A stretch of DNA of 64,000 bases from Pseudolabrys sp. (GTDB lineage: Bacteria; Pseudomonadota; Alphaproteobacteria; Rhizobiales; Xanthobacteraceae): the NCBI GenBank assembly GCA_022843325.1, contig JALHNV010000008.1:5665-69664 (forward strand). Reading direction: 5' to 3'. Shown one piece after another: positions 53,864 to 62,811 of this stretch. Made by a program: the position numbers and the translations under genes. The notes below the pieces were generated by a model. That model saw nothing but the letters and a program-made list of their open reading frames with translations. It made no database searches and was not told the origin of the DNA. Within the stretch, counting starts at the first letter, position 1. The number at the start of each line of letters is the position of its first letter.

Positions 53864-55540
53864 CTAGTTGGTCCCGTCCAGCAACCGGCGGGCGATGACC
53901 TGGGCCTGAATTTCGGCGGCGCCCTCGAAAATGTTGAGAATGCGCGCGTCGCACAGAATACGCGAGATCGGGAATTCGAGCGCGAAGCCGTTGCCGCCGT
54001 GAATCTGCACGGCGTTGTCGGCATTGGCCCAGGCGATGCGCGCACCGAGCAGTTTGGCCATGCCGGCCTCGAGATCGCAGCGGCGGCCGGAGTCTTTTTC
54101 GCGCGCCGCATGATAGGTGAGCTGGCGCGCGATCATGATCTCCACCGCCATCATCGCGATCTTGTCGGCGACACGCGGGAATTCGATAATCGGCTTGCCG
54201 AACTGCATGCGGCTCTGCCCGTACTCGATCGCCGTTTCCATCGCCGATTGCGCCACGCCGATGGCGCGGGCGGCGGTCTGGATGCGCGCCGACTCGAACG
54301 TCTGCATCAACTGCTTGAAGCCGAGCCCCTCGACGCCGCCGAGCAGATTTTCCGCCTTGACCTCGAAGCCGTCGAAGGCGATCTCGTATTCCTTCATGCC
54401 GCGATAGCCGAGTACTTCGATCTCGGTGCCGGTCATGCCCTTGGCGGGGAACGGATTTGCGTCGTCGCCGCGCGGCTTTTCCGCCAGCAGCATCGACAGA
54501 CCGCGATGGCCAGCCTCTTTCGGATTGGTGCGAACCAGCAGCGTCATCAGGTCGGCGCGGACCGGATGGGTGATCCAGGTCTTGTTGCCATAGACTTTGT
54601 AGACGTCGCCTTCGCGTACGGCGCGCGTCTTCAGCGAGGCGAGGTCGGAACCGGTGTTGGGCTCGGTGAAAACCGCGGTCGGCAGCACCTCGCCGGACGC
54701 GAGCCTTGCCAGCCATTTTTCCTTCTGCGCGGGGGTGCCGCTGCCGAGGATCAGTTCGGCCGCGATCTCGGAACGGGTGCCGAGCGAACCGACGCCGATA
54801 TAGCCGCGCGACAGTTCTTCGGAGACGACGCACATCGACTCCTTGCCGAGCCCCATGCCGCCGAACTCTTCCGGAATGGTCAGGCCGAACACGCCGAGGT
54901 CGGACATCTGCGCGATGATGTCCATCGGGATATAGCTGTTGGTGCGGTGCCAGCTTTGGGCATGGCCGATCACCTCGCTGTCGGCGAATTTGCGCATCTC
55001 CTCGCGGATCGATTCCAGCGTCTCGTCGAGGCCGCAGGCGCCGACCGTGGCGCCGTGGCTGGCGCGCAACAGTTCAACGAGGCGGGCGCGCCGCGCCGCC
55101 GTGTTGCCATCGGCGATAAGACTCTCGACCGCGGGCGTGATGCGGGCCGCCACCTGAGCCATGGTCAGGCCCATATCGCTGGGGCGGACGATCTCGCCCT
55201 GGCTCATCGGAATGCCGCCGGCGATCTGCGCCAGGTATTCCCCGAGCCCGATCCGGACCAGCAGTTCTTCGAGCTCGCCGAAGGTCCCGGCGCGCGACAT
55301 ACGGTCCGTGTAATCGGCGAGTTGCCGCACCGCTTCCACGTAAGTGGCGAGCCAGGCCAGCCCGTGGGTCGCCCGCTGCTCGCGATCGAACAAACGGCTG
55401 ACGGCATGGCCTTCGACCACGACCCGCGTCCGCACCTTGGCCAGTGCGTCGGCCAGCAGCGCGTCAAGCGCGGCGGTCGCCTCGCGGCTCAATTCGACCA
55501 GATCTTGTTCGGCAACGGCGCGGGAGGCTGCGGTCGGCAT
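53864..55540 (-). CDS. mcd: (2S)-methylsuccinyl-CoA dehydrogenase (ethylmalonyl-CoA pathway)
   Basis: ACAD core ([19 protein letters not shown]) with the long N-terminal extension containing [12 protein letters not shown]; ccr lies 7 kb away. Confidence 0.82.
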
Positions 55541-55639
55541 GGGGCCCTCGATCGGACAATGCCGCAAACCTACGCGTGCACTGCACAAAAGCAAAGTGGA
55601 TATCTGGGTAAGTGTCAGTGATCGGGCAGACCTTTGCAA

Positions 55640-57830: not shown

Positions 57831-58694
57831 TTGCGCATAATCTTTTGGTCATTGCGGATCGCGCGCGACGCGGTACGCAATTTTACCGCCGATGACGGCT
57901 GGGCCATCGCCAGCCATATCGCGCTGTCGACATTAATGGCGATGTTCCCGTTCCTGATCATTGTCACCGCGCTGGCCGGCTTTTTCTTCGGCTCGCGGGA
58001 GTTGGCCGACGAGGCGGCGCAAATCCTCCTGGAGGCTTGGCCCGAGGCCGTCGCCGGCCCGATCGCGATGGATATCGCCGGCGTTCTGACCGACCGCCGC
58101 GGCGGCGTGCTGACCTTCGGCGTCCTGTTCGCGCTTTATTTCGCGTCCAGCGGCGTCGAAAGCTTGCGCATCGGGCTGAACCGCGCCTACGGCGTGGTCG
58201 AACAGCGGCCCTGGTGGCTGCTGCGCCTGGAGTCGGTCGCCTACGTTCTGGTCGCCGCGGTGGCGATCCTGGCGTTCTCGTTTCTCGTGGTGCTGGCACC
58301 GCTGATCATCAACAAACTGGTGCACATTGTCCCGGCTCTTGAGCCGCTGAGCGAAGTCATCACCTTCGCGCGCTATGCAGTCGCCGTCATCGTCCTCGTG
58401 ATGGCCCTGCTGATCCTGCACAGTTGGCTGCCGTCGGGCCGCCGCAACTTCGTCGAAATCGCGCCCGGCATCGTCGCCACGCTGCTGCTGTGGCTGATCA
58501 GCGGCGCTGCCTTTGGCCGTTATCTGGCCTATTACGCCTTCGCCTATGTCTCGATGTATGCCGGCCTCGCCTCGGCGATGATCGCGCTGGTCTTCCTCTA
58601 TGTCTGCGCCTCAATCTTCATTTTCGGCGGCGAGTTGAACTCGGTCATCGCCAAGGACCGGGAAGCACAACAAGCGGACCAGCCTGCGGCTTAG
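57831..58694 (+). CDS. YihY/BrkB-family membrane protein
   Basis: ASHIALSTLMAMFPFL, LNRAYG, YAGLASAMIALVFLY. Confidence 0.88.
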   Translation: MRIIFWSLRIARDAVRNFTADDGWAIASHIALSTLMAMFPFLIIVTALAGFFFGSRELADEAAQILLEAWPEAVAGPIAMDIAGVLTDRRGGVLTFGVLFALYFASSGVESLRIGLNRAYGVVEQRPWWLLRLESVAYVLVAAVAILAFSFLVVLAPLIINKLVHIVPALEPLSEVITFARYAVAVIVLVMALLILHSWLPSGRRNFVEIAPGIVATLLLWLISGAAFGRYLAYYAFAYVSMYAGLASAMIALVFLYVCASIFIFGGELNSVIAKDREAQQADQPAA

Positions 58695-58821: not shown

Positions 58822-59700
58822 GTGCCGCTATCTGCAGCAGGAACCCGCTTGCCCATGCTTCGCCCGATCGACCGCCGATCTCTGGACGAAACGCTGCCGC
58901 TGCTGCAGCGCGGGTTCGCGCACGCGCCGGCGTTCTGGGCGGCGGCGCTTGAACGCCTGAAACGCTATCAATCGGCCGCCCCGGACACACCCGCCGCCTA
59001 TCTGCTCGACGTCAAAGGGGCCCCCGTCGGCGTCATTCTCACCATTGCCAGCGCGCGCACCGCGGCCGATGGCGCGACGCGCAGCGTGGTCAACCTGTCG
59101 AGCTGGTTTGTCGATGAAGCCCATCGCTGGCGGGCGCCGCGCATGCTGCAACAGCTTACCGCCAGCAACGACACGCTCTACACCGACCTGACACCTACCG
59201 TTCCGGTGCAATCGATGATTGGGCGCCTCGGCTTTAGCCGCTGGACCGAAGGAACGCTGCTGTTCCCGCTGCCGCTGCATGCCATCGGCCGCGCCGGCGA
59301 CACGCATGTGGTGCGTTTCGATAACCTGCCGGCCGATGCCTTGCCGGCGCCGGTGCAGCGGATCATGACCGATCATGCGGCACTGGGCTGTCTGACCGCC
59401 GCCTTGTGGGACGGCGCGCGCCTGCACCCGCTGATCTTCTCACGGATGAGCCGCAAGGGATTGCCGATAGCGCGCCTGCTCTACGCCGAGGACCGTTCGG
59501 TCGTCAGAGGCCACATGGCCGCGATTGCCCGCTATTTGCTGCGGGAAAAGGCGGTGCTGCTGGCGATGAGCGCCGATCGCAGCGAGCGGGTCCCCGGCAG
59601 CTTCTTTACCCAACGTGCACCGCCGGCCTTTTATAAAGGCACGATGAACACCGCGGCGATCGATCACGCCTATTCCGAATTCGTTTTCCTGCAAATCTGA
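58822..59700 (+). CDS. GNAT-fold acyltransferase-like protein
   Basis: NLSSWFVDEAHRWRA (motif A-like) and YTDLTP...RLGF (motif B-like); GGAGG before GTG 58822. Confidence 0.65.
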   Translation: MPLSAAGTRLPMLRPIDRRSLDETLPLLQRGFAHAPAFWAAALERLKRYQSAAPDTPAAYLLDVKGAPVGVILTIASARTAADGATRSVVNLSSWFVDEAHRWRAPRMLQQLTASNDTLYTDLTPTVPVQSMIGRLGFSRWTEGTLLFPLPLHAIGRAGDTHVVRFDNLPADALPAPVQRIMTDHAALGCLTAALWDGARLHPLIFSRMSRKGLPIARLLYAEDRSVVRGHMAAIARYLLREKAVLLAMSADRSERVPGSFFTQRAPPAFYKGTMNTAAIDHAYSEFVFLQI

Positions 59701-59703
59701 CGC

Positions 59704-59979
59704 ATGGCGGCCGATAACATGCTTTCACCGACGAACCAGAATGTCAGAGCCGACATTACGGATTATCTCCGGCAACGATTCCCCGCTCTGTCGAGCCACG
59801 CGCTCAACGATGACACGCCGCTTCTGGCCGGCGGCGCCATCGATTCGCTCGGAATTCTGGACCTCATGGCCTTCGTCGGCGAACGCCTCGGCATCGAGAT
59901 ACAGGACGAGGATTTCGAGCCGGAGAATTTCGAAACCCTCGGTCACCTGGTCGCCTTCGCGGAGCGAAAGAAGGCGTGA
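59704..59979 (+). CDS. Acyl carrier protein
   Basis: GAIDSLGILDL phosphopantetheine site, acidic tail PENFETL. Confidence 0.9.
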   Translation: MAADNMLSPTNQNVRADITDYLRQRFPALSSHALNDDTPLLAGGAIDSLGILDLMAFVGERLGIEIQDEDFEPENFETLGHLVAFAERKKA

Positions 59980-61511
59980 TGGCGGCGCCGTATCTCGTCC
60001 ATCATCTGCTTCAGCACAGCGGCGACACCGGTGCGCGGACTGCGTTGATCGATGGCCCGAGGACGCTGACCTATGGCGATTTCCGCCGTCAGATCGATGA
60101 TGGCGCGCGGCGCCTGCAAGCGGCCGGTGTGACGCGCGGCGACCGTGTCGCGATCCTGCTGCCGAAAAGCATCGAGGAATGCCGCGCGATTTTCAGCACC
60201 AGCCGCGCCGGCGGCGTGTTCGTGCCGGTCAATCCGCTGCTGCGTCCGGCGCAGATCAAGCACATCGTCGAGGACTGCACGGCGCGGGTGCTGATCACCA
60301 ACGCGGCGCTCTTGAAGACTCTGGGCAACACCTTTGACGACACTGCCGGCCTCTCGATCGTCACCGTCGATGACGACACCGGCAGCAGTGGCGCATCGCC
60401 CCCGCCGTCCGCCGCCATTGGCGAGGACCTGGCGGCCATCCTCTACACATCGGGATCGACCGGCCGGCCCAAGGGCGTGATGCTCAGCCACCGCAATCTG
60501 GTGGCCGGAACGCGGATCGTGCGCACCTATCTCGGCATCTCGGGCTCAGACCGCATTCTGTCGGTGCTGCCGTTCAGCTTCGACTACGGTCTCAACCAGT
60601 TGCTGACCGCGGTCGAGCAATCGGCCACCACCGTGCTGCTGACGTTCCGGTTTGGCGACGACATCGTGCGCGCCATCCGCGACCATGAATGCACAGGGCT
60701 GGCCGGCGTCCCGACCATCTGGTCGATCCTGACGCGGGCGTCGCCGCTGCTGGCCAAGACCCCGCTGCCGTCATTGCGGTACATCACCAATTCCGGCGGC
60801 GCCGTGCCGTCCGACACGGTGCGCAAGCTGCGTGACATGCTGCCCGACACCCGCATCTTCCTGATGTACGGGCTGACCGAAGCGTTCCGCTCGACGTTTC
60901 TGCCGCCCGATGAAATCGACAAGCGGCCGACCTCGATCGGCAAGGCCATTCCCGAATGCGAGGTCTTCGCCGTCACCGCCGACGGACGCCGCACCAAGCC
61001 CGGCGAGCCCGGCATTCTCGTGCACCGCGGCCCGACCGTCTCGCTCGGCTACTGGAACAGGCCCGAGGATACCGCGCGCGTGCTGCGCCAGAACCCCTTG
61101 CTGCCGGCGACACATGGCGGCGAGATCGTCTGCTTCTCCGGCGATCTGGTTACCGAGGACGAAGAAGGCTTCCTGTATTTCGTCGGCCGCGACGACGCCA
61201 TGATCAAGTCGTCCGGCTACCGCATCAGCCCGACGGAGGTCGAGGAAGTGCTGATGTCGACCGGGCATTTCCGCCAGGTCGCCGTGATCGGCCTGCCGGA
61301 TCCGATGGCCGGGCAGAAAGTGCACGCCGTCGGCGTCGCCCGCGATGGCGCCATCGACGTGCCGGTGACGCTGAAGGCCGCCGCCGACCGGCTGCCGCCG
61401 TTCATGCTGCCGCGCGACATCGAACTGGTCGACGAACTGCCGGTCACCGCCAACGGCAAGGTCGACTACAAGACGCTGGTCGCGCAACGGACAAGCCATG
61501 CCGGCCACTGA
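59976..61511 (+). CDS. Acyl-AMP ligase resembling the exosortase-A-associated family
   Basis: YTSGSTGRPKG, LPFSFDYG, MYGLTEAFRST, FSGD, NGKVD; overlaps the ACP stop. Confidence 0.88.
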   Translation: MMAAPYLVHHLLQHSGDTGARTALIDGPRTLTYGDFRRQIDDGARRLQAAGVTRGDRVAILLPKSIEECRAIFSTSRAGGVFVPVNPLLRPAQIKHIVEDCTARVLITNAALLKTLGNTFDDTAGLSIVTVDDDTGSSGASPPPSAAIGEDLAAILYTSGSTGRPKGVMLSHRNLVAGTRIVRTYLGISGSDRILSVLPFSFDYGLNQLLTAVEQSATTVLLTFRFGDDIVRAIRDHECTGLAGVPTIWSILTRASPLLAKTPLPSLRYITNSGGAVPSDTVRKLRDMLPDTRIFLMYGLTEAFRSTFLPPDEIDKRPTSIGKAIPECEVFAVTADGRRTKPGEPGILVHRGPTVSLGYWNRPEDTARVLRQNPLLPATHGGEIVCFSGDLVTEDEEGFLYFVGRDDAMIKSSGYRISPTEVEEVLMSTGHFRQVAVIGLPDPMAGQKVHAVGVARDGAIDVPVTLKAAADRLPPFMLPRDIELVDELPVTANGKVDYKTLVAQRTSHAGH

Positions 61512-62811
61512 TGAAAAATCCGCTTTGGCCGACACGCTGGTCGCCGAACATTTCGCGGTGCGCGACGGCCGGCTGATCGCCGGCGGCATTGCCGTCGACG
61601 AACTGGCCGAGCGGTTTGGCACACCGCTGTTCGTCTACGACGCCGGCGTGATGAAGAAGAGCTTCGCGCGCCTGTCGGAAGCGGTCGCCGGCTTCGCCGA
61701 GATCTACTTCTCCATCAAGGCCAATCCCAATCCGGCGGTCGCCGCGATTTTCGTCGCGCAAGGCGCCGGCATCGAGATCGCCTCGGCCGGCGAATATGCC
61801 CGCGCCCGCCGCGCCGGCGCCGATCCAATGCGCATTCTGTTTGCCGGCCCCGGCAAGCGCGACGACGAACTCGATTACGCCATTGCCGGCGGTATCGGCG
61901 AAATCCATCTCGAGAGCTTCGAGGAAATCGCGCAGGTCGAGGCGATCGCGCGCAAGCGCGGCCAAAAGGTCCCGGTGTCGATCCGCATCAATCCGGTGGC
62001 GGCGGCGCAGGGCGGCGCCATGCGCATGGGCGGCAAGCCGGCGCCGTTCGGCTTCGACGAGGAGCAGGTCGGCGAGGTCCTGCAGGCATTGGCCGCGACC
62101 GCGCATCTCGATTTCTGCGGCGTCCATTTGTTCGCCGGCACGCAGATCCTCGACGCCGACGTGCTGCTGGCGCAGTGGAGCCATGGCATCGGCGTCGCGG
62201 CAAGCGTCGCGCGGCAGGCGCAGCGCCCGCTGCGGTCGATCGACCTCGGCGGCGGACTCGGCATTCCCTATTACAGCGGCGACGGCGTGCTCGATCTCGA
62301 CCGCGTGCGCGCCGGCATCCCCGCGCTTCAGCAGGCGCTGCGGGACGAACCGCTGATCCGCGACGCCCGCGTCGTGGTCGAGCCGGGGCGCTATCTCACC
62401 GGTCCATCCGGGCTTTATGTCGCGCGCGTCATCGCCAGCAAGCAATCGCGCGGCCAGCGCTTTCTGATCACCGACGGCGGCATGCATCATCACCTCGCCG
62501 CCTCCGGCAATCTCGGCCAGGTGATCAAGCGCGATTATCCGGTGGTTGCACCGGCTCACATGAATGCAACGGAACTGTCACCCTGTTCGGTGGTCGGCCC
62601 GCTGTGCACGCCGCTCGACACGCTGGCGCGCAAGACCGACATGCCGGACCTGAAGGCCGGCGACCTGATCGCGGTGATGCAATCCGGCGCCTACGGATTA
62701 TCCGCCAGCCCGTCCGGCTTTCTCAGCCATCCGCAGCCGGCCGAAATCGTGGTCGGCGACGGCCAGGCCATTGTCGTGCGCGAGCGCGAAAAGCTGGAGC
62801 CGCTGCCGTAA
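61498..62811 (+). CDS. Fold-type III PLP-dependent decarboxylase (LysA/BtrK-like)
   Basis: FSIKANP (PLP Lys), HLFAG, DLGGG, EPGRY, GPLCTPLD, GAYG. Confidence 0.88.
   Translation: MPATDEKSALADTLVAEHFAVRDGRLIAGGIAVDELAERFGTPLFVYDAGVMKKSFARLSEAVAGFAEIYFSIKANPNPAVAAIFVAQGAGIEIASAGEYARARRAGADPMRILFAGPGKRDDELDYAIAGGIGEIHLESFEEIAQVEAIARKRGQKVPVSIRINPVAAAQGGAMRMGGKPAPFGFDEEQVGEVLQALAATAHLDFCGVHLFAGTQILDADVLLAQWSHGIGVAASVARQAQRPLRSIDLGGGLGIPYYSGDGVLDLDRVRAGIPALQQALRDEPLIRDARVVVEPGRYLTGPSGLYVARVIASKQSRGQRFLITDGGMHHHLAASGNLGQVIKRDYPVVAPAHMNATELSPCSVVGPLCTPLDTLARKTDMPDLKAGDLIAVMQSGAYGLSASPSGFLSHPQPAEIVVGDGQAIVVREREKLEPLP

Follow-up and report, generated by a model that had tools for sequence, protein, structure and literature searches.

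In the 64,000-nucleotide stretch of Pseudolabrys sp. contig JALHNV010000008.1 analysed here (the window, whose positions are used throughout), four adjoining genes encode a tandem GNAT protein, a stand-alone acyl carrier protein (ACP), an adenylate-forming ligase, and a decarboxylase dependent on pyridoxal 5'-phosphate (PLP). We propose that this cassette makes β-alanine on the carrier and then hands it on to an amine produced elsewhere in the cell, a scheme which, taken as a whole, we hold to be about evenly balanced between right and wrong. The ligase would adenylate the side-chain (β) carboxyl of L-Asp and load it onto the phosphopantetheine of Ser48, and the PLP enzyme would then remove the free α-carboxyl of the tethered residue to give β-alanyl-S-ACP, both steps following from close homology to enzymes tested in vitro. 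Judging by its fold, its anatomy, and its gene neighbourhoods, the tandem GNAT would use as its donor the loaded ACP instead of acetyl-CoA and form an amide with an acceptor. The fourth step, the weakest, names that acceptor: in all likelihood an amino sugar, freed of its N-acetyl group, in a surface polysaccharide of the Wzx/Wzy type, or its lipid-linked or nucleotide precursor, which would gain a positively charged amine, with glycan genes of this genome acting in trans. The first two steps thus rest on homology, the third on anatomy, and the fourth on the neighbourhoods of relatives. The genes are as follows.

58855..59700, + strand: GNAT gene (orf1), 281 aa, tandem two-domain GNAT fold of an unnamed family, proposed carrier-protein-dependent aminoacyl transferase
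59704..59979, + strand: ACP gene, 91 aa, stand-alone acyl/aminoacyl carrier protein with its phosphopantetheine site at Ser48 (DSL)
59976..61511, + strand: ligase gene, 511 aa, predicted AfcQ/VinN-type adenylation enzyme (β-aminoacyl-ACP ligase)
61498..62811, + strand: decarboxylase gene, 437 aa, fold-type III PLP enzyme of the BtrK/BolN type, proposed substrate iso-aspartyl-ACP

An earlier note on this DNA had described four intact and tightly coupled genes on the plus strand, and all four open reading frames (ORFs) proved intact. The GNAT stop codon (59700) lies 3 nt before the ATG of the ACP gene (59704), the ACP and ligase genes share a 4-nt GTGA overlap (59976-59979), the ligase and decarboxylase genes overlap by 14 nt (61498-61511), and the decarboxylase stop at 62811 is 2 nt from the stop of the convergent ccr gene. 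The ACP and decarboxylase genes are translationally coupled to the ligase gene, an arrangement conserved in relatives. A GTG start for the GNAT at 58822 (292 aa) is possible, with GGAGG 5 nt upstream, yet homologues (281-282 aa) match from the ATG at 58855. As to its source, the homologues point to a Pseudolabrys-like member of the Hyphomicrobiales. The motifs that the note had called intact are indeed so: DSL with Ser48 in the ACP (PF00550, 22.6 bits against a cut-off of 20.8); YTSGSTGRPKG at 157, YGLTE at 298, GRDD at 404, and the catalytic Lys495 in the ligase; and FSIKAN at 71 (the PLP lysine), DLGGG, EPGRY, and GPLCT in the decarboxylase. A scan for promoters and terminators gave nothing above shuffled sequences.

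Judged from its pocket and its relatives, the ligase is an amino-acid adenylation enzyme rather than a fatty acyl-CoA ligase. TIGR03098 is the family that it matches best (583.2 bits, under the cut-off of 592.35), and its best single-domain match in the PDB is VinN (227 bits), followed by other β-amino-acid adenylation enzymes. The pocket loops align to VinN without gaps and give D203, Y204, N207, A243, T271, S273, M297, F304, R305, and K495, with the A4 residue (Ala243) read off this alignment. Three enzymes that activate the β-carboxyl (side chain) of Asp or methyl-Asp have published codes (PMC12186527, Table S8), namely D A S T A T M F R K in AfcQ, D Y Y P T T M K R K in FlvN, and D F Y P T S M K R K in VinN. 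Eight of the ten ligase positions match at least one of these three codes, D203, S273, M297, R305, and K495 being as expected of an AfcQ/VinN-type enzyme; positions A3 and A4 (Asn207, Ala243) match none. The residues named as diagnostic, Asp230, Ser299, and Arg331 (PMC7756342), are all retained, and DptA3, an activator of the α-carboxyl of Asp, shares just the D and the K with the ligase code. In enzymes of this type, Asp230 is assigned to the amino group and Ser/Thr299 and Arg331 to the α-carboxyl, with Met323 and an invariant Lys completing the set.

Many acyl-CoA ligase models also match the ligase, all below cut-off, and the decarboxylase scores 291.9 on the lysA model, just under its cut-off of 297.9, as would be seen if the database labels were right and a fatty or aromatic acyl-CoA ligase stood by chance beside a decarboxylase of free diaminopimelate (DAP) or ornithine. 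We regard this as most improbable. The pocket is nearly invariant across the decarboxylase-linked ligases and absent from the ordinary acyl-CoA ligases of the same loci; in particular, Asp203, which binds the amino group, and Arg305 never vary in the former and are missing from the latter. A separate lysA-like gene, 32% identical to the decarboxylase, lies on another contig (C58), and the ligase and decarboxylase are translationally coupled to the ACP in every four-gene copy examined. Both outcomes that the earlier note had named as fatal to its proposal, a ligase acting with CoA on fatty acids and a PLP enzyme acting on free DAP or ornithine, therefore look unlikely.

The closest tested precedent is the AfcQ/AfcK/AfcP module of AFC-BC11 synthesis in the Burkholderia cepacia complex, a stand-alone adenylation enzyme, carrier, and fold-III PLP decarboxylase that in vitro load L-Asp and decarboxylate it to β-alanine on the carrier (PMC12186527). 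An AfcP-like N-terminus and a Ser40-bearing carrier identified an orthologue of the afc cluster on a replicon of Burkholderia arboris. Identity to its AfcQ is 42.5% for the ligase (E 8e-109), which shares D, M, F, R, and K of the AfcQ code and has a Phe at position Lys330, as AfcQ does; identity is 33% between the ACP and the AfcK orthologue and 25% between the decarboxylase and the AfcP orthologue. The AfcQ orthologue scores 630.7 on TIGR03098, above the cut-off, which ties that family to a reaction proven in vitro. The AFC-BC11 cluster differs in having 25 genes, among them those for a fatty acyl-AMP ligase (FAAL), a β-ketoacyl-ACP synthase III (KAS III), a citrate synthase, and desaturases, none of which is present among the four genes here, and in having AfcA/AfcL/AfcO where the cassette has a tandem GNAT. 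The same activation of the β-carboxyl of Asp or methyl-Asp and a decarboxylation confined to the carrier are found in VinN/VinL/VinO (vicenistatin), FlvN/L/O (fluvirucin), and BolO/BolC/BolN (bolagladin) (PMC11284099, PMC7756342), all in pathways with polyketide synthase or non-ribosomal peptide synthetase (PKS/NRPS) genes that the cassette lacks, along with counterparts of the protecting-group enzymes VinM/VinK/VinJ.

Because pocket and gene set agree, we place the ligase with the AfcQ/VinN-type β-aminoacyl-carrier modules. That an amino acid is loaded on this ACP is very probable from these comparisons. In the PDB, the ACP is matched best by type II peptidyl carriers, PigG and PltL among them, and its D47 and S48 are invariant in 17 orthologues. 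A relation to the OlsH/OlsI ornithine-lipid ACP was rejected, the match being far under cut-off (37.5 against 130); that pathway uses a GH3-like enzyme. The conversion of Asp to β-alanyl-ACP is, by homology, probable, since AfcQ/AfcK/AfcP, BolO/C/N, and VinN/L/O are closer precedents than the butirosin enzyme BtrK put forward in the earlier note. The pathway had also been called uncharacterised, a description that no longer fits its first half, the loading and decarboxylation being characterised chemistry.

By its sequence relationships, the decarboxylase is a BtrK-type, carrier-dependent enzyme: BtrK, its best solved relative, scores 285 bits and the best LysA 195 bits. On its best family model, TIGR03099, it reaches 436.5 bits, under the cut-off of 478.45. 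Its closeness to BtrK, which acts on glutamyl-ACP, and its greater distance from the AfcP orthologue weigh against Asp and leave room for L-Glu, activated at the γ-carboxyl and converted to γ-aminobutyryl (GABA)-ACP as with BtrK, or for another dicarboxylic amino acid, with the rest of the scheme the same. At 25% identity to AfcP, the decarboxylase alone does not separate Asp from Glu. The A3 and A4 residues Asn207 and Ala243 are smaller than the Tyr and Pro of VinN, a point in favour of Glu; AfcQ, however, is also small there (Ser/Thr) and takes L-Asp, and BolN and AfcP are themselves relatives of BtrK proposed or shown to act on Asp. In butirosin synthesis, moreover, Glu is loaded by an ATP-grasp enzyme, BtrJ, and not by an adenylation domain. 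We therefore consider a substrate other than Asp decidedly unlikely. A distant relative of the cassette in the gammaproteobacterial range (L088:4625-12959) joins a ligase, a fused glutamate mutase S/E, a decarboxylase, a methyltransferase/PIG-L deacetylase, a GNAT relative, and a convergent GT4 gene; no ACP was detected in this 20-kb locus. It is probably, from its gene content, a 3-aminoisobutyryl version of the same pathway. Glutamate mutase supplies methylaspartate in vicenistatin synthesis, and the fusion, which matches that supply, thus favours the Asp series.

The earlier note had likened the ligase and decarboxylase to families associated with exosortases. TIGR03098 and TIGR03099 are indeed their best family matches, by a wide margin and with the same gene pair and pocket, yet both proteins score below the curated cut-offs, and so do their orthologues in Shinella and Phreatobacter; the pair in the window thus forms a sister clade of the two families. 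The cassette also lacks hydrolase 1/2 and AsnB genes. With TIGR03109 and PF09721 we found no exosortase in the genome, which is 94% complete and could still have an unassembled copy, and on this result we rejected an exosortase A/PEP-CTERM system. Our literature searches found no chemistry for TIGR03098 or TIGR03099, which are catalogued by exosortase association only.

The GNAT protein had no match in Pfam, NCBIfam, or PDB sequence searches, and the identity given to it in the earlier note was borne out by its fold. Its AlphaFold2 model (pLDDT 93.5) best matches 2ozg in Foldseek (E 2.7e-9), with Eis proteins next, aligns to 3ddd with a VIA Z of 13.2 and a root-mean-square deviation of 4.5 over 243 residues, and aligns near full length to the tandem GNATs 2ozg, 3ddd, 7q3a, and 5kf1; its Atlas neighbours carry PF00583. 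As modelled, the protein is a tandem GNAT, two folds in one chain. The family is large (1962 clusters at 50% identity, E<=0.001), and its donor site is altered: Arg91 is 97% conserved and is followed by W-R-A-P-R instead of the Gly-rich CoA loop after strand β4, so that the pyrophosphate loop Q/R-x-x-G-x-G/A of acyl-CoA-using GNATs is not present; of 295 family members, 29 have Gly at the canonical motif-A position 94. Loss of the CoA loop is a mark of GNATs that depend on a carrier, for example SbzI and FeeM (PMC11685415). SbzI, which acts with SbzL/SbzG, likewise combines an adenylation enzyme, a carrier, and a GNAT-made amide, and differs in being a single GNAT domain working on an azaindane dinucleotide, the protein here being a tandem GNAT of a separate family; SbzI and FeeM are not among the fold matches listed, and kinship with them is still possible. 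A predicted GNAT-ACP complex scored 0.24 (mark 0.32) and was counted neither way, and a pattern scan of the genome contigs for the GNAT, too insensitive a search, returned one locus. Because the cassette has no thioesterase, KAS, or condensation enzyme, the GNAT is the sole candidate for off-loading the carrier and a likely off-loading transferase.

Relatives of the GNAT adjoin other carrier-loading systems. Some stand beside sets of an amino acid:[carrier protein] ligase (NF005479), an ACP, and an acyl-CoA dehydrogenase, others beside sets of an ACP, a divergent AMP ligase, and a short-chain dehydrogenase/reductase (SDR). Ten NF005479 loci have a GNAT relative no more than 8 kb away (27% identity in the pair compared), and in four Bradyrhizobium-like genomes (L043, L044, L047, and L048; for example L047:7274-10417, + strand) the order is ACP, acyl-CoA dehydrogenase, and NF005479 ligase, directly followed by the GNAT relative at the position held by DUF1839 in Rhizobiaceae. 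These rhizobial clusters (PMC2922099) differ from the cassette in that their loading enzyme is a seryl-tRNA synthetase paralogue and their usual next gene in Rhizobiaceae is DUF1839. None of 30 Rhizobiaceae loci had the GNAT near the amino acid:[carrier protein] ligase (best profile E 0.37), and DUF1839 was absent from all ten GNAT-linked loci. The idea that the GNAT belongs to the Atu2574 family predicted in PMC2922099 was rejected, the Atu2574 position being held by DUF1839. Since the GNAT stays while the loading enzymes change, the family is best read, in our inference from these neighbourhoods, as the acceptor-side enzyme, and its altered loop and association with three carrier-loading systems hint that it may use an acyl-carrier protein as donor. 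Tentatively, and with the likelihood on the lower side, the tandem-GNAT family might be a general carrier-dependent glycan N-aminoacyl transferase with interchangeable loading modules: β-alanyl from the AfcQ/BtrK pair, glycyl or alanyl from the seryl-tRNA-synthetase-like ligases, and other acyl groups from the ACP/AMP-ligase/SDR sets.

Further members of the family were seen in other settings. On plasmid pT136b of Rhizobium sp. T136 (L102:9475-17098), a GNAT relative has as neighbours an SDR gene, a gene for an adenylate-forming enzyme, and one whose annotation is that of a CmlS-type halogenase. The set recalls the dichloroacetyl genes of chloramphenicol synthesis and is possibly, by this analogy, a halo-acyl donor module. 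Very distant relatives (E 1e-14 to 1e-17; L058-L065) come after a conserved gene, 270 aa long and matching no Pfam family, with no carrier genes in the vicinity. In two proteins of 540 and 562 aa (P0197, P0276), the GNAT occupies residues 261-536 behind an N-terminal domain of ~260 aa of no assigned family, which might hint at the acceptor.

The order GNAT-ACP-ligase-decarboxylase is conserved far beyond chance. It is kept between unrelated flanks in Pseudorhodoplanes sinuspersici, Phreatobacter, Shinella, and others. In a sample of 401 genomes of the order, the co-occurrence survey suggested in the earlier note gave 19 genomes with the decarboxylase clade, 17 of them with a GNAT homologue and 16 with it within ~4 kb, counts to be read with the fact that 12 of these 16 belong to one genus and are not independent. 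The GNAT tree groups the window protein in a 21-row clade (support 99/97), and in 20 of these rows the GNAT adjoins a ligase and a decarboxylase. Split arrangements also occur: in one genome (G325), the loading triad and the GNAT are on different contigs, the GNAT (L042) standing beside GT2 and deacetylase genes. One genus of the order has the decarboxylase alone or the ACP-ligase-decarboxylase triad with no neighbouring GNAT (L079:8191-9528, L080:10437-11780, L081:8328-11580, and L082:8067-11125). A close relative (L078:11011-13958) has a frameshifted, split decarboxylase and a short ACP call, and Rhizobium CC-CFT758 has a split ligase (L138:10001-11527); these frameshifts are either assembly errors or decay.

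For the acceptor, the earlier note had offered a surface polymer, a lipid, or a protein. Of these we prefer a polysaccharide, a choice drawn solely from the gene neighbourhoods of relatives. Polysaccharide loci hold about 6 of the 11 lineages with the full gene set. The cassette lies with Wzx, GumC, glycosyltransferase, and VpsF genes in Shinella HZN7; with deacetylase, flippase, and glycosyltransferase genes in Shinella WSC3-e and Rhizobium CC-CFT758; with GT4, GT2, and deacetylase genes on Sinorhizobium meliloti pSymB (27 records) and in G260; with deacetylase, GT2, Wzy, and Wzx genes in G582; with a divergent Wzx in G193; and with a PIG-L deacetylase domain and a GT4 in G420. A polysaccharide deacetylase is present in most of the Shinella HZN7, Shinella WSC3-e, CC-CFT758, pSymB, G260, and G582 loci, and de-N-acetylases fit an aminoacyl acceptor because deacetylation exposes the amine needed for an amide. 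Lone GNAT relatives also occur in exopolysaccharide loci, and a similar prediction, with a cell-surface sugar amine as acceptor, was made for the amino acid:[carrier protein] ligase clusters (PMC2922099). On pSymB, the genes (L136:7588-14692) form a strain-variable glycan island of GNAT, TIGR03098, TIGR03099, ACP, GT2, and deacetylase genes, present in Rm41, SM11, and RU11/001, with a sulfotransferase and a type I secretion system next to it; the 21-kb stretch around it showed no exosortase.

In the genome of the window itself, we looked for an acceptor locus: contig C30 has a Wzy/Wzc locus and C14 an isolated Wzx, neither tied to the cassette. The former is a candidate source of the acceptor:

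Contig C30, 8000-27900: Wzy-dependent polysaccharide locus (L133) with two Wzy_C, Wzc, methyltransferase, GT4s, AT3 acyltransferase, GT2, and priming sugar transferase

Several points weigh against a scheme that ends on a glycan. The subclade of the window (Pseudolabrys, Pseudorhodoplanes, and Phreatobacter; 14 tree rows) has no adjoining glycan genes. Among the genes scanned, the C30 locus has no evident deacetylase, nor has it a clear counterpart of the Wzx/VpsF genes that flank the Shinella cassette; deacetylase-domain genes on C4 and C5 lie outside glycan loci as far as the ORFs show. The screen for glycan loci was partly circular, its queries coming from some of the same loci, and its kin are not independent. 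Three-gene and decarboxylase-only versions exist with no neighbouring GNAT (L079-L082). Lastly, the next known step after such a decarboxylation is N-acylation of the tethered amine, which the GNAT could equally perform. Literature searches for a β-alanylated polysaccharide found nothing relevant. On balance, we would as readily accept as doubt, from these neighbourhoods, that the acceptor is a glycan; the sequence of loading, decarboxylation on the ACP, and GNAT transfer set out in the earlier note is consistent with all the evidence in its logic, the transfer step and the acceptor staying inference.

If the GNAT instead N-acylated the tethered β-alanyl amine from acetyl-CoA or a fatty acyl-ACP, or coupled it to a small amine, the product would be an N-acyl-β-alanine lipid, signal, or metabolite. 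The tethered amine is what VinM, AfcA, and the Bol KAS III enzymes N-acylate next, Eis and N-myristoyltransferase are examples of small-molecule N-acyltransferases with a tandem GNAT fold, and the separation of the window's subclade from glycan genes would fit as well. Such a route, however, would need a release enzyme, which the cassette does not encode, and sits poorly with the replaced CoA loop and with the deeper branches of the GNAT clade, found in glycan loci with de-N-acetylases; we judge it unlikely. A macrolactam or lipopeptide biosynthetic cluster was rejected: as the earlier note had stated, no ketosynthase (KS), condensation, exosortase, or glycosyltransferase gene adjoins the cassette, and FAAL, PKS/NRPS, and KAS III genes are likewise not in the locus, whose flanks are yihY/BrkB and an MCP gene upstream and ccr downstream.

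The cassette might alternatively supply free β-alanine for pantothenate and CoA in place of PanD, or β-alanylate a protein. We did not find panD here, nor in five further genomes that carry the cassette. The gene was, however, found in just 24 of 151 genomes of the order, a rarity that weakens a PanD bypass, and with the cassette found in 0 of 60 genus relatives the distribution is too patchy for a core cofactor route. The cassette includes no hydrolase, a phosphopantetheinylated carrier would be a circular means of making a precursor of CoA, and no conserved gene for a candidate target protein was found nearby. We consider both variants very improbable.

The cassette sits in the genome as an insertion between two genes that are not part of it:

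57831..58694, + strand: yihY/BrkB membrane protein gene, left flank, PF03631
62814..63998, - strand: ccr (crotonyl-CoA carboxylase/reductase) gene, right flank, convergent, TIGR01751 612 bits, start probably beyond the window

yihY was found in all 30 genus relatives searched, and yihY and ccr are directly convergent (gap <100 nt) in 18 of 24. Since the two genes meet directly in relatives and the GNAT gene was found in 0 of the 60 genus genomes searched, the four genes behave as an accessory 4.1-kb block at the yihY/ccr junction. Their GC content and GC content at third codon positions are similar to those of the host, so no recent foreign origin is visible. In Pseudorhodoplanes sinuspersici (L072:7362-13968), the neighbourhood is the same, with the cassette on the other side of ccr (yihY, ccr, cassette). 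An acyl-CoA dehydrogenase-like gene (53864-55639, - strand) flanks the region together with ccr, and a methylmalonyl-CoA mutase-family gene lies just past the region in relatives; these three are probably genes of the ethylmalonyl-CoA pathway, unrelated to the cassette.

In the butirosin system, BtrI/BtrJ/BtrK/BtrH, as in the proposed route, decarboxylation on a carrier is followed by transfer to a sugar amine. It differs in its ATP-grasp loading where the cassette has an ANL-type ligase, in using Glu where Asp is predicted, and in its transferase, BtrH where the cassette has a GNAT. BtrH is papain-like (PMC2922099). The loading chemistry was already known from antibiotic synthesis; our literature searches did not find its pairing with a tandem GNAT as a stand-alone four-gene unit, the occurrence of this GNAT family beside several carrier-loading systems, or a description of the hand-over step.

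If the tentative reading of the GNAT family as a general glycan transferase is right, the cassette would be a portable unit for β-alanylating a surface polysaccharide, a cytoplasmic counterpart of Dlt and AlmEFG. Were the GNAT to hand β-alanine to a polysaccharide, the outcome would be a glycan decoration of which our literature searches found no description and which would alter surface charge. Because exosortase, hydrolase, and AsnB genes are absent from it, the cassette is the smallest set with which the whole route could be rebuilt, using four soluble proteins, and it makes these orphan families directly testable. The presence of the GNAT family beside amino acid:[carrier protein] ligases is, in turn, a lead on what those carriers feed and, if the general-transferase reading holds, would explain the fate of the aminoacylated carriers in some bradyrhizobial clusters.

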